Source of the DNA: a virus
Taxonomy: Duplodnaviria > Heunggongvirae > Uroviricota > Caudoviricetes
Virus record (IMG/VR): IMGVR_UViG_3300044655_003531
Coordinates: 1 to 64,000 of that record
Length of the DNA stretch: 64,000 nucleotides
Direction: 5' to 3' (one strand)
Position numbers and translations under genes: made by a program. The notes under the pieces are model-generated. The model searched no databases. It saw nothing but the letters and a program-made list of their open reading frames with translations, and was not told where the DNA came from. Of the stretch, positions 2,142 through 4,268 are shown piece after piece; the stretch's first letter is position 1, and every line of letters begins with the position of its first letter.

Positions 2142-2942
2142 TCAATTGGACAGGGGCGCTTTAATTGTTGGATGTGATACATAATTTTCTAAAATAATAT
2201 CTCCTGGCATAAATGATTCGATACCATCTCTAACGTGAACATTTGGTAGTCTAAATGGTTCTCTTTTTATTTGCTCTTTTGCTTGTTCAATATGATTTAA
2301 ATACAAATGTGTATCTCCTAAATTACCAATCAATTCATCAGGTATCATTTGTACTTCATCTGCAATCATTTCCAATAATAATCCATAAGAAGCAATGTTG
2401 AATGGTAAACCCAAGAATGTATCTACTGAGCGTTGATTCCACATTAGAGAGATTGCTCTGGTTGGAACTTCGGCTTCATTCATTATTTTAATATTTAACT
2501 CTTTAATATGTTCTCGGGTTTCCATTTTAAATCTTTCTGTTGATTGAAATATATTACACCGTTCTTCATAACTTAACTCTCTTGTATAAACTTGAAATCC
2601 ATAATGACAAGGTGGGAGAACCATTTGGTCTAATTCACCTACATTCCAAGCCGAAACCATTAATCTCCTACTATCAGGATTTGTTTTAAGGTCGTTGATT
2701 AGGTTTTGGATTTGGTCAATATACTGTGTTCCTTTTACATATAAGGGTTCAATATCATCACCATCATCAATTTTTAATGTTGTTGGAATAGCAACTTCGG
2801 TTTTCCATTTTCTCCACTGTTTACCATAAATTGGTCCCAAATCACCCCACTTCTTAGCAAACTCATCATCTGTTTTGATTTTGTTGATGAATTCTTCTTG
2901 GGTGTATGGTCTTCCATCTGGGTGTAAGTGTTCTTTATTCAT
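2142..2942 (-). CDS. thyA: thymidylate synthase, C-terminal portion (exon 2 or C-terminal fragment of a split gene)
   Basis: Contains [43 protein letters not shown] (active-site PPCH), [26 protein letters not shown]. Lacks the ThyA N-terminal third, which is encoded at 3951..4268. Confidence 0.85.
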   Translation of the reverse strand: [266 protein letters not shown]

Positions 2943-3906
2943 AACTTTTTATTTCATTTTTTAATTGTTCTAAATCAATATCACATCTTTTACTTTTAGT
3001 TCTATTACTACTCCATTCTATCATTTGTAGATTACAGTGATGACTAATAATTTCAGGTTCTACATTATTCAAAAATCCTTCAATTATTGAGTATTTGTGG
3101 TCTAATTGGAACCCAATTTTTCCATTTGTTACTCTTTCTAAATTATTTGGGTTTATAATGTTTTTATACATTTTATATGTTGTTTCAGTTAATCGTTTAA
3201 CTTTTTTTCTATAAATTTGGTAATCCGACAAAAACTCATCAGGTATTATCCATCCTCTTTCGATTTTTGTTTTAATACCATTACCAATTCTATTTTCCGA
3301 GTTAATATTAGCGGAATTATTAACCCCGTATTTATCTTTTAATACTTGCTTTATTTTCTCTTTTATACTGTGAGATTTAAACGGGTTGTCAACACCATAC
3401 TTTTTAATCCAAGTATTTAACGCTTTTTGTTTTATTGCATCACTATGAAAAGAATGTTCAACACCATATTTTTTAATCATAGTTGATTTAATTTTCTTTT
3501 TTAGTTCAGGACTTTGTAAAGTATAACCACCGTATTTTTCATTAACAGTTTTACGTCTTTTATTATTTCTTATGATTTTATCTGTTTCCGATAAACTATT
3601 ATATCTTTCTCTAAATTTATTTTTAGTTAGTTCCGAATTGTTATTACACTTTGCAGAACAAAATTTTCTATTCAAATCAATAATTGGGTTACCACAATGG
3701 AAGCAAGTATTAACGGAGTTTCTATCTTTCAAGATATACCTTATCCTATCAACCAATTTAGGATTGTAAATAGTTAGATATTGAGTACTATCAATAATAT
3801 CCTGTTTAAGTGATGATTCAATTACTCTTAATTTTTGAGACAATATTTTATACTCATTATTTTTTATAACACACAAGGTTGTTTCAATTTTAGTTTTTAG
3901 ACACAT
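2935..3906 (-). CDS. HNH homing endonuclease encoded in the sequence that interrupts thyA
   Basis: C-terminal QLDHKYSIIEGFLNNVEPEIISHHCNLQMIEWSSNRTK fits the HNH motif (DH...N...H/N). Basic nucleic-acid-binding N-terminal region with CxxC...C pairs. Sits exactly between the two thyA parts. Its stop overlaps the ATG of the thyA C-terminal ORF. Confidence 0.7.
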   Translation of the reverse strand: MCLKTKIETTLCVIKNNEYKILSQKLRVIESSLKQDIIDSTQYLTIYNPKLVDRIRYILKDRNSVNTCFHCGNPIIDLNRKFCSAKCNNNSELTKNKFRERYNSLSETDKIIRNNKRRKTVNEKYGGYTLQSPELKKKIKSTMIKKYGVEHSFHSDAIKQKALNTWIKKYGVDNPFKSHSIKEKIKQVLKDKYGVNNSANINSENRIGNGIKTKIERGWIIPDEFLSDYQIYRKKVKRLTETTYKMYKNIINPNNLERVTNGKIGFQLDHKYSIIEGFLNNVEPEIISHHCNLQMIEWSSNRTKSKRCDIDLEQLKNEIKSYE

Positions 3907-3950
3907 TTTGGTTTCTTTTATAATAAATATCTAAAAACCAACAAAAGTCA
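2943..3950 (-). mobile_element. intervening sequence splitting thyA (self-splicing group I intron carrying an HNH ORF, or a homing-endonuclease insertion that split the gene into two polypeptides)
   Basis: thyA N-terminal ORF terminates at 3951. The HNH ORF starts 45 nt later. thyA C-terminal ORF restarts with its own ATG overlapping the HNH stop. Analogous to the T4 td intron and to HEG-split nrd genes in T4-like phages. Confidence 0.6.
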
Positions 3951-4268
3951 TTATTTTTCCTCATCTTTCTTTAACTTCTCACATTCTTTTAGGTATGCTT
4001 GATAAGCATCCCCCGTCCAAATGTTACAGTCATTTTTAAGAAGATACTCTATTGATGTATCGCCTCTTAAAAACCAAAGTAATTCTGTACATATTGACTT
4101 CCACGCCATTTTCTTGGTTGTAAGAAGTGAAAACCCTTCACTCATTTTATGACGGATTTGTCTACCAAATACTGAAATAGTACCAGTACCTGTTCTATCT
4201 TTCTTTTCCACTCCATTATCTAATATATCTTGGAGTAGTGATTGATACTGTTTATCGAGGTTGTTCAT
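3951..4268 (-). CDS. thyA: thymidylate synthase, N-terminal portion
   Basis: [55 protein letters not shown] is the canonical ThyA N-terminus (RTGTGT, TTK, ELLWF, GDT). ORF ends at a TAA right after an L. casei-type insertion region. Confidence 0.85.

Follow-up and report, generated by a model that had tools for sequence, protein, structure and literature searches.

The closest analogue of the gene arrangement described here is nrdA-mobE of Aeromonas phage Aeh1, reportedly the subject of work by Friedrich et al. in 2007 and by Gibb and Edgell in 2007 and 2009, in which a free-standing HNH homing-endonuclease gene lies inside a gene of nucleotide metabolism and leaves it as two open reading frames (ORFs) on the same strand, each with its own stop or start, while related phages carry the gene unbroken. 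The Aeh1 arrangement yields an active split enzyme, and for mobE, as for T4 I-TevI, I-TevII, I-TevIII, and segB, a late promoter inside a hairpin that sequesters the ribosome-binding site limits translation to late transcripts (PMC2988022). A related layout was described by Dassa et al. (2009) for "fractured genes", which are found mainly in phages and consist of a gene half, a spacer of 27–51 nucleotides (nt), an endonuclease gene, and an overlapping start of the second gene half; in the proposed model, the upstream stop and the downstream Met both come from the invading endonuclease gene (PMC2677866). Here, we analysed the thymidylate synthase (TS) gene thyA in a 64,000-nt stretch of phage DNA (positions 1 to 64,000 of IMG/VR record IMGVR_UViG_3300044655_003531, Caudoviricetes; hereafter the window), which comes from a large phage related to Flavobacterium phages. 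Its thyA is interrupted by an endonuclease gene, and we conclude that it is a split gene rather than an intron-containing one, expressed as two separately translated pieces (probability about 0.85). Literature searches retrieved no report of thymidylate synthase in split form or of thyA accompanied by a free-standing endonuclease.

All genes in the thyA part of the window are read on the minus strand, where the ORF list and the sequence confirmed four ORFs, namely those of ThyA-N, the endonuclease, and ThyA-C, listed below, and of a GIY-YIG-like protein treated further on. The interrupted gene comprises the following features:

3951..4268, minus strand: thyA-N, a stand-alone ORF for the first 105 amino acids (aa) of thymidylate synthase
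3907..3950, minus strand: spacer of 44 nt between the thyA-N stop and the endonuclease ATG, the sole non-coding sequence of the interruption
3908..3941, minus strand: predicted RNA hairpin UUGGUUUUU / AAGAAACCAA from the minimum-free-energy fold, its 3' arm ending 1 nt ahead of the endonuclease AUG
3916..3930, minus strand: AT-rich box ATATTTATTATAAAA in the hairpin loop, read from the sequence
2935..3906, minus strand: free-standing homing-endonuclease gene for 323 aa, assigned by domain and homologue comparison
3004..3111, minus strand: region of the HNH catalytic motif (QLDH...NLQ...N; D269, H270, N292, N301)
2935..2942, minus strand: 8-nt overlap ATGAATAA of the endonuclease stop and the thyA-C start, read from the sequence
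2142..2942, minus strand: thyA-C, a stand-alone ORF for the remaining 266 aa

The stop codon of thyA-N is a TAA with a TGA directly after it, and exactly 44 nt lie between this stop and the ATG of the 323-aa ORF. The endonuclease ORF, whose own TAA stop is at 2937..2935, overlaps by its last 8 nt with the thyA-C ORF, whose ATG occupies 2942..2940. An earlier sequence-only reading of this DNA had described a stop-terminated ThyA N-terminal part of 105 aa at 3951..4268 and, after a short gap, a separate endonuclease ORF at 2935..3906, both of which were borne out, the gap being 44 nt. It had also noted that thyA-C has its own ATG overlapping the endonuclease end, which is correct, but the overlap is not of the ATGA type that it named, since it spans the 8 nt ATGAATAA.

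The locus shares with Aeh1 the free-standing HNH endonuclease gene within a gene of nucleotide metabolism, the two same-strand ORFs with their own stop and start, the existence of related phages with the gene unbroken, a hairpin (here predicted) over the endonuclease start with a promoter-like element in it, and a functional enzyme made of two chains, which for thyA is expected from the genes alone. It differs from Aeh1 in the host gene (thyA versus nrdA), in the endonuclease, which here consists of a zinc ribbon, DUF7487 repeats, and an HNH motif, in the point of insertion, which here is a variable surface domain and not a functionally critical region, and in the presence of three endonuclease families at the thyA junction.

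Both halves are recognisable as thymidylate synthase. In Pfam, ThyA-N matches positions 1–90 of PF00303 (Thymidylat_synt) with E = 1.3e-30, and ThyA-C matches positions 76–265 of the same family with E = 2.6e-63. Alignment with proteins of known structure in PDB placed ThyA-N on residues 2–94 of Enterococcus faecalis TS (3uwl) and residues 2–95 of L. casei TS, and ThyA-C on residues 121–314 of 3uwl. The gap between residues 94 and 121 falls inside residues 69–138 of TS, its small domain, which is variable and flexible (PMC6479881); by these alignments the break sits inside this domain, in agreement with its earlier placement within an L. casei-type insertion loop. ThyA-N retains the motifs DRTGTGT (with the arginine that binds the dUMP phosphate) and ELLWF, while YGxQWR, DSRR, PPCH (with the catalytic Cys), QRSVD, FNIASY, and GDTHLY are retained in ThyA-C. 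We take these motifs to belong to the TS active site, and because they are divided between ThyA-N and ThyA-C, the active site needs both chains. The ratio of nonsynonymous to synonymous substitutions (dN/dS), calculated by the Nei–Gojobori method for the window against four split relatives, was 0.08–0.12 for ThyA-N, 0.21–0.32 for ThyA-C, and 0.10–0.25 for the endonuclease, with synonymous thyA sites near saturation. These ratios point to purifying selection on both ThyA halves and on the endonuclease.

Comparison with other phages placed the break precisely. The gene is uninterrupted in Flavobacterium phage immuto, where it encodes a ThyA of 423 aa. Of 86 informative loci, comprising 80 viral contigs retrieved with ThyA-C, five metagenome contigs, and the immuto record, about 68 have the gene unsplit, and so do 65 of 80 metagenome loci that ThyA-N retrieved. 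The unsplit alleles, of which about 130 were compared among the loci L001-L172 (e.g., L010-L087 and L101-L172), have a hypervariable loop in the small domain after the motif GDAYKNY, varying in length from about 5 to 55 aa and showing little sequence similarity. The break in the split alleles coincides exactly with this loop, so that the alignment with uninterrupted thyA that the sequence-only reading had suggested does map the insertion point, to the hypervariable small-domain loop. The gene order around thyA varies even among close relatives.

The split form is itself widespread. Wherever the context of an endonuclease homologue of at least 59% identity was fetched, the gene lay between a ThyA-N ORF of about 92–106 aa and a ThyA-C ORF (contigs L002-L006, L043, L089-L092, and P0026; identities of 59–99%; many samples). 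At least 120 database clusters contain ThyA-N as a stand-alone protein; the best 120 are 103–151 aa long, all but about eight of them 103–108 aa, with 78–100% identity. Judged from such sequences, endonuclease-split thyA is evidently common in environmental phages and abundant in metagenomes. An assembly artefact was rejected as the source of the split, the same layout being present in many independent assemblies.

The product of the middle ORF consists of an N-terminal domain, a four-cysteine zinc ribbon (C68, C71, C83, and C87), DUF7487 repeats, and a C-terminal HNH motif. No Pfam HNH model matched the 323-aa ORF, for which Pfam gave DUF7487 and a treble-clef match below the cut-off (DUF2116), while PHROGs calls both this ORF and the 189-aa GIY-YIG-like ORF homing endonucleases. 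A database search found about 50 clusters of homologues with 50–99% identity and near-constant length, most of them of exactly 323 aa. In 17 aligned homologues, down to 50% identity, QLDH (D269, H270), N292, N301, and the four cysteines are invariant, and the protein therefore appears to have an HNH catalytic motif (His plus Asn/Asn) conserved across its homologues. No close relative was found in deposited phage genomes, where the best match has 26% identity; more distant matches are annotated homing endonucleases, such as F-LimIII. A Foldseek search of the endonuclease model against PDB returned nothing useful, and the sequence profile matched in PDB only the RecA C-terminal domain, weakly, via the DUF7487 repeats. 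The region concerned comprises residues 115–201 (3304..3564), with repeats of the form KYGV..N.F.S..IK.K; single RecA chains gave E of about 0.02, and a value of E = 2e-13 for the profile of the DUF7487 repeats stems from concatenated RecA constructs.

The same thyA break holds three unrelated endonuclease genes in different phages. Besides the HNH/DUF7487 type of the window, a GIY-YIG protein with NUMOD1 forms the insert in L008, L024, and L162, and two of these proteins passed the Pfam GIY-YIG cut-off of 22.6 bits (23.2 bits in L008 and 27.1 bits in L024). A third type, present in L009, L060, L070, L093, L099, L100, and L102, is 230–240 aa long and ends in a NUMOD1 C-terminus, while its N-terminus is GIY-like and is not recognised by Pfam. 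In all 19 independent split loci that were tabulated, the thyA-N stop is TAA and ThyA-C has a separate ATG; the spacer measures 36–48 nt, the endonuclease 204–329 aa, and the thyA-C ATG is placed at -20 to +14 nt relative to the endonuclease stop. In L008, L060, L070, and L093, this ATG stands apart from the endonuclease stop, so that thyA-C cannot depend on translational coupling there; in these loci, it probably initiates alone, from a conserved A-rich AAAAAGTT-ATG context.

The sequences with which ThyA-N ends and ThyA-C begins are common to all three endonuclease types, and parts of them (YLKEC... and ...RPYTQEEF) recur in the loops of uninterrupted alleles, e.g., L081, L039, and L041. The tails at the junction are therefore loop sequence and not intein remnants. 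Taken together, these data allow a tentative joint reading, which we consider plausible but somewhat short of an even chance, that the thyA break is a long-lived docking site within a coding sequence, at which at least three unrelated homing-endonuclease families have replaced one another. If so, a portable junction module, consisting of the ThyA-N tail with its stop, the AT-rich box with the hairpin, and the ThyA-C start and head, could convert an intact thyA into a split one when a cassette homes, and the variation in loop length among unsplit alleles could in part represent scars of past cycles of insertion and loss.

Shared use of one site has precedents. In T4 gene 39/60 with mobA and in gene 43 as split in Aeromonas phages 25 and 44RR, a single split site likewise holds an endonuclease gene in some phages and other sequence in others (PMC2988022). 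By analogy, this pattern of occupancy raises the possibility that endonucleases invade a gene that is already split. The thyA locus differs from these cases in the host gene, in having three distinct families as occupants, and in its very short spacers. Different endonuclease families at one genomic position are also exemplified by mobC/mobE, which in T4-related phages give way to segH/hef (Sandegren et al. 2005, as cited in PMC2988022); that position is intergenic, whereas the one in thyA is intragenic.

The endonuclease gene and the adjoining ends of thyA share a history different from that of the rest of thyA. Between the window and L002/L003, the proportion of synonymous differences (pS) was 0.42 for the endonuclease versus 0.67–0.73 for the flanking thyA, and a sliding-window comparison delimited a block of 85–93% identity that begins about 140 nt before the thyA-N stop, includes the spacer (93%) and the endonuclease gene, and extends about 55 nt into thyA-C, while thyA outside the block is only 55–67% identical. 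Such an identity mosaic is the product expected of homing with co-conversion and thus indicates, by sequence comparison, that the endonuclease cassette moved laterally; it also fits the model in which both the upstream stop and the downstream Met are brought in by the invading cassette (PMC2677866). A crude neighbour-joining tree built from ThyA-C, which carries no support values and is correspondingly weak, places the split alleles, whatever their type, in dispersed positions among unsplit ones. One segment of thyA-C, at 2793..2888 (minus strand; ThyA-C residues ~19–50), has 82–96% nucleotide identity to loci with other endonucleases, far above the rest of thyA, and when 3.1 kb of the window (1400–4500) was used as a megablast query, the head of ThyA-C (match ~2805–2903) gave the only match to immuto, with 87% identity. 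One could speculate that the conserved segment 2793..2888 is a recombination anchor or an endonuclease cleavage target.

The spacer has features that may bear on the expression of the endonuclease. In loci of the HNH type, the 3' arm of the spacer hairpin ends 1–2 nt before the AUG, and its loop in the window carries ATATTTATTATAAAA; in loci with the other endonuclease types, the hairpins are unrelated and involve the AUG itself in the pairing, and a similar box is present (CATATATTTATAATAAAA and variants). Hairpins were predicted in all loci examined, with fold z-scores from -4.4 to +0.2, and in eight loci the pairing is kept in 82% of cells versus 37–64% with slid partners. RNAalifold found no consensus structure in the spacer. 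AT-rich boxes are located 4–14 nt upstream of the start codon in all endonuclease families seen at thyA, and one also precedes the GIY-YIG-like ORF of the window (2081..2098), its homologue in L076, and an endonuclease gene in L074; one further copy, at 26177, lies upstream of a non-endonuclease ORF. A scan for sigma-70 and terminator consensus sequences returned fewer sites than in shuffled sequences and was uninformative. By analogy, the hairpin with a box in its loop would resemble the control of T4 and Aeh1 endonucleases, the AT-rich box being a putative promoter or translation-initiation element.

These observations suggest the following mechanism. A free-standing HNH-type endonuclease gene sits within the small-domain loop and makes thyA a "gene in pieces", whose upstream part stops at the TAA and would give a product of 105 aa, and whose downstream part, with its own ATG, would give one of 266 aa, with neither RNA nor protein splicing taking part. 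As in Aeh1 NrdA (PMC2988022), ThyA-N and ThyA-C would associate non-covalently, forming a normal dimeric and active enzyme with active-site residues from both polypeptides. The endonuclease gene would form a cassette with the spacer and with adjoining thyA sequence, about 140 nt from thyA-N and ~55 nt from the beginning of thyA-C, and this cassette would be mobile between thyA alleles, presumably by double-strand-break repair with co-conversion, as the identity mosaic suggests; two other endonuclease families use the same junction. Expression of the endonuclease is probably restrained as for T4 I-TevI and Aeh1 mobE: in read-through transcripts, the hairpin would occlude the endonuclease start region, while the AT-rich loop box may serve as the endonuclease's own promoter or initiation region.

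The sequence-only reading had offered two alternatives for the interruption, an endonuclease-made split as in Aeh1 nrdA, which is supported, and a group I intron with a looped-out ORF, which is not. According to the latter, the HNH ORF would lie in the loop of a T4 td-like intron, and RNA splicing would restore a continuous ThyA. The gene is a classic intron host (T4; Bastillevirinae, PMC11878797), and intron ORFs can reach into the ribozyme core (PMC2988022). With T4 td and its I-TevI gene, the window shares the thymidylate synthase host, the interruption by an endonuclease ORF, and a late-promoter-type hairpin, predicted in the window, over the endonuclease start; it differs in that no ribozyme was found at its thyA, the enzyme is HNH rather than GIY-YIG, the gene is broken in the small-domain loop while td is interrupted further into the gene, and a stop codon ends the first would-be exon while a start codon opens the second. 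The covariance search for group I introns that had been proposed as a check was run with Rfam model RF00028 and found no match at E <= 10 in positions 1300–4600 of the window, none at E <= 1 in eight related split loci, and none at the gathering score in the whole window. In a control run under identical settings, the ORF-bearing T4 td intron (with I-TevI) was recovered with E = 1e-7 and the T4 nrdB intron, the other of the two known ORF-bearing T4 introns used, was missed; a false negative is thus possible, the covariance search alone is not decisive, and the verdict rests on geometry and comparative arguments. The non-coding space at the insert is 44 nt upstream of the endonuclease ORF and 0 nt downstream, whereas the smallest group I introns are, to our knowledge, about 200 nt long; a ribozyme core would need far more room than this, which speaks against an intron. 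Conservation within the endonuclease ORF does not rise from the middle towards the ends (0.57–0.63 nucleotide identity between the window and L005, the most distant comparison), which argues against a core hidden in the coding sequence. Moreover, the site is used by three unrelated ORFs whose short spacers share only the AT-rich box and no non-coding core, and the TAA stop and ATG restart are kept in all 19 loci. An intron is therefore very improbable. Stop-codon recoding was also rejected as an explanation: the thyA-N stop is TAA throughout the 19 loci, while the phage stop recodings known to us affect TAG or TGA.

Several points count against the split-gene explanation or parts of it. The absence of splicing, the existence and assembly of two polypeptides, and the function of the halves are read from sequence; the Rfam negative, given the missed nrdB intron, is only supportive; the window's own hairpin is weak (z = -1.5), and covariation among the eight loci amounts to one compensatory change, with no excess over shuffles; the AT-rich box is rare elsewhere in the window, and no general phage promoter could be demonstrated from it; for the cleavage target of the endonuclease there are only speculative candidates; and the window represents 64 kb of a genome of roughly 270–310 kb, so that a second thymidylate synthase may be encoded elsewhere. 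The last point leaves some room for the view that the insertion inactivated thyA, its halves are decaying pseudogenes, and dTMP comes from another phage or host enzyme, the more so as decay does occur at this locus, where the neighbouring GIY-YIG gene is frameshifted. However, every catalytic motif is kept in the two halves, the split layout persists across endonuclease homologues only 59% identical, and the low dN/dS (0.08–0.32 over both halves, at near-saturated synonymous sites) together with the intact N fragments of about 105 aa in at least 120 distinct clusters argues against pseudogenes, which makes inactivation quite unlikely. Virtually no credence can be given to a "fractured gene" in the full sense of Dassa et al., with split-intein parts on the halves and ligation by protein trans-splicing. 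The layout of gene half, short spacer, free-standing endonuclease, and overlapping second-half start does match (PMC2677866), but the sequence beyond conserved ThyA amounts to about 13 aa at the ThyA-N end and about 14 aa at the ThyA-C start, too short for intein halves, Pfam detected only Thymidylat_synt, and no intein domain, in both ThyA ORFs, and the tails have matching stretches in the loops of unsplit alleles. On these grounds, a split intein was rejected; the locus instead corresponds to the intein-less variant briefly mentioned by Dassa et al. (PMC2677866). Finally, the endonuclease could have been domesticated, that is, kept for a benefit to the phage, such as exclusion of markers of co-infecting relatives or regulation of thyA, and not be purely selfish. 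Its constant length of 323 aa, the catalytic and zinc residues invariant down to 50% identity, and its dN/dS of 0.10–0.25 would agree with this, and T4 seg and mob genes do bias marker inheritance (PMC2988022); the identity mosaic and the replacement by two other families, however, fit ordinary selfish turnover, and many relatives have no insert at all. We regard domestication as a minor possibility, which is compatible with the split-gene explanation and concerns only the persistence of the endonuclease.

Endonuclease-split genes have been known from a handful of T4-like phages. The split-gene explanation would add thyA, the classic intron host, as a gene split without an intron, present in many natural variants in another phage lineage, one that is uncultured and has Flavobacterium phages among its relatives. 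Further interest lies in the three endonuclease families on one intragenic junction and in the abundance of the arrangement in metagenomes, which offer a comparative set for studying the creation of two-piece enzymes by invasion, the turnover of endonucleases at a single site, and the extent of co-conversion. The split point would mark a position at which TS tolerates a break of the backbone. For annotation, it follows that such thyA fragments should not be called pseudogenes, nor should an intron be sought.

Immediately downstream of thyA-C lies the fourth ORF, with the following features:

2081..2098, minus strand: AT-rich box CATATATTTATACCAAAA upstream of the GIY-YIG start codon, read from the sequence
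1501..2070, minus strand: free-standing, frameshift-truncated ORF of 189 aa for a GIY-YIG-like / NUMOD3 endonuclease, assigned by NUMOD3 and PHROG 314
1413..1541, minus strand: out-of-frame continuation of the GIY-YIG gene (NUMOD3-like motif and C2H2 zinc finger), assigned by the joined-frame match to P0141

A free-standing GIY-YIG neighbour had been described at this position from the sequence. The ORF is indeed there, with NUMOD3 matches of E = 2.4e-6 and 2.5e-8 and assignment to PHROG 314 ("homing endonuclease"), but the gene is not intact, and the Pfam GIY-YIG match is weak (E = 0.9, residues 2–73). PHROG 314 also holds the L008 and L024 proteins that pass the Pfam GIY-YIG cut-off. An intact homologue of 220 aa from other assemblies, P0141, corresponds to the joined frames of the window with 100% identity over 218 aa and continues through the NUMOD3-like motif and the C2H2 zinc finger. 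The frameshift in the window consists of one extra A in the run 1521..1524, and at 1413..1415, two codons ahead of where the gene normally ends, a TGA is found instead of a Ser codon. The frameshift is either endonuclease decay or a homopolymer sequencing error. In L076, a homologue with 54% identity is located just downstream of an unsplit thyA.

Two further loci have endonuclease genes just upstream of an intact thyA-family gene. L074 (2463-4939) contains a ThyA-N relic of 48 aa, then, behind the same hairpin and AT-rich box, a DUF7487 protein of 341 aa whose C-terminus is TnsA/restriction-like, and after it an intact thyA of 414 aa, a different mode of insertion at thyA. L007 (4880-6810) contains a ThyA-N relic of about 20 aa, an HNH homologue with 50% identity, and then a ThyA-family gene that is intact but a different one, encoding 276 aa; 2 kb downstream lies the gene of a second DUF7487 protein, of 556 aa. 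With three families at the break and endonucleases close to thyA on either side, upstream in L074 and L007 and downstream in the window and L076, the proposal that this region is a homing hotspot is supported.

Elsewhere in the window, an ORF of 131 aa at 18500..18895 (minus strand) has a C-terminus, SDFIARSISDKDFAKIWGAIPP, that weakly resembles the head of ThyA-C (42% identity over 26 aa, E = 0.009 in a small search), while its N-terminus resembles a small ORF downstream of thyA in L024; the resemblance may be due to chance. Rfam gave a marginal tRNA match at 21391..21522 (minus strand), with 31.5 bits against a cut-off of 29 bits; it spans 132 nt for a 71-position model, would need an insertion of about 60 nt, and was not called by ARAGORN. 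ARAGORN called no tmRNA or tRNA in the window, and Rfam detected a tmRNA at 54797..55236 (minus strand) with 72 bits and E = 4e-26, above the gathering score.

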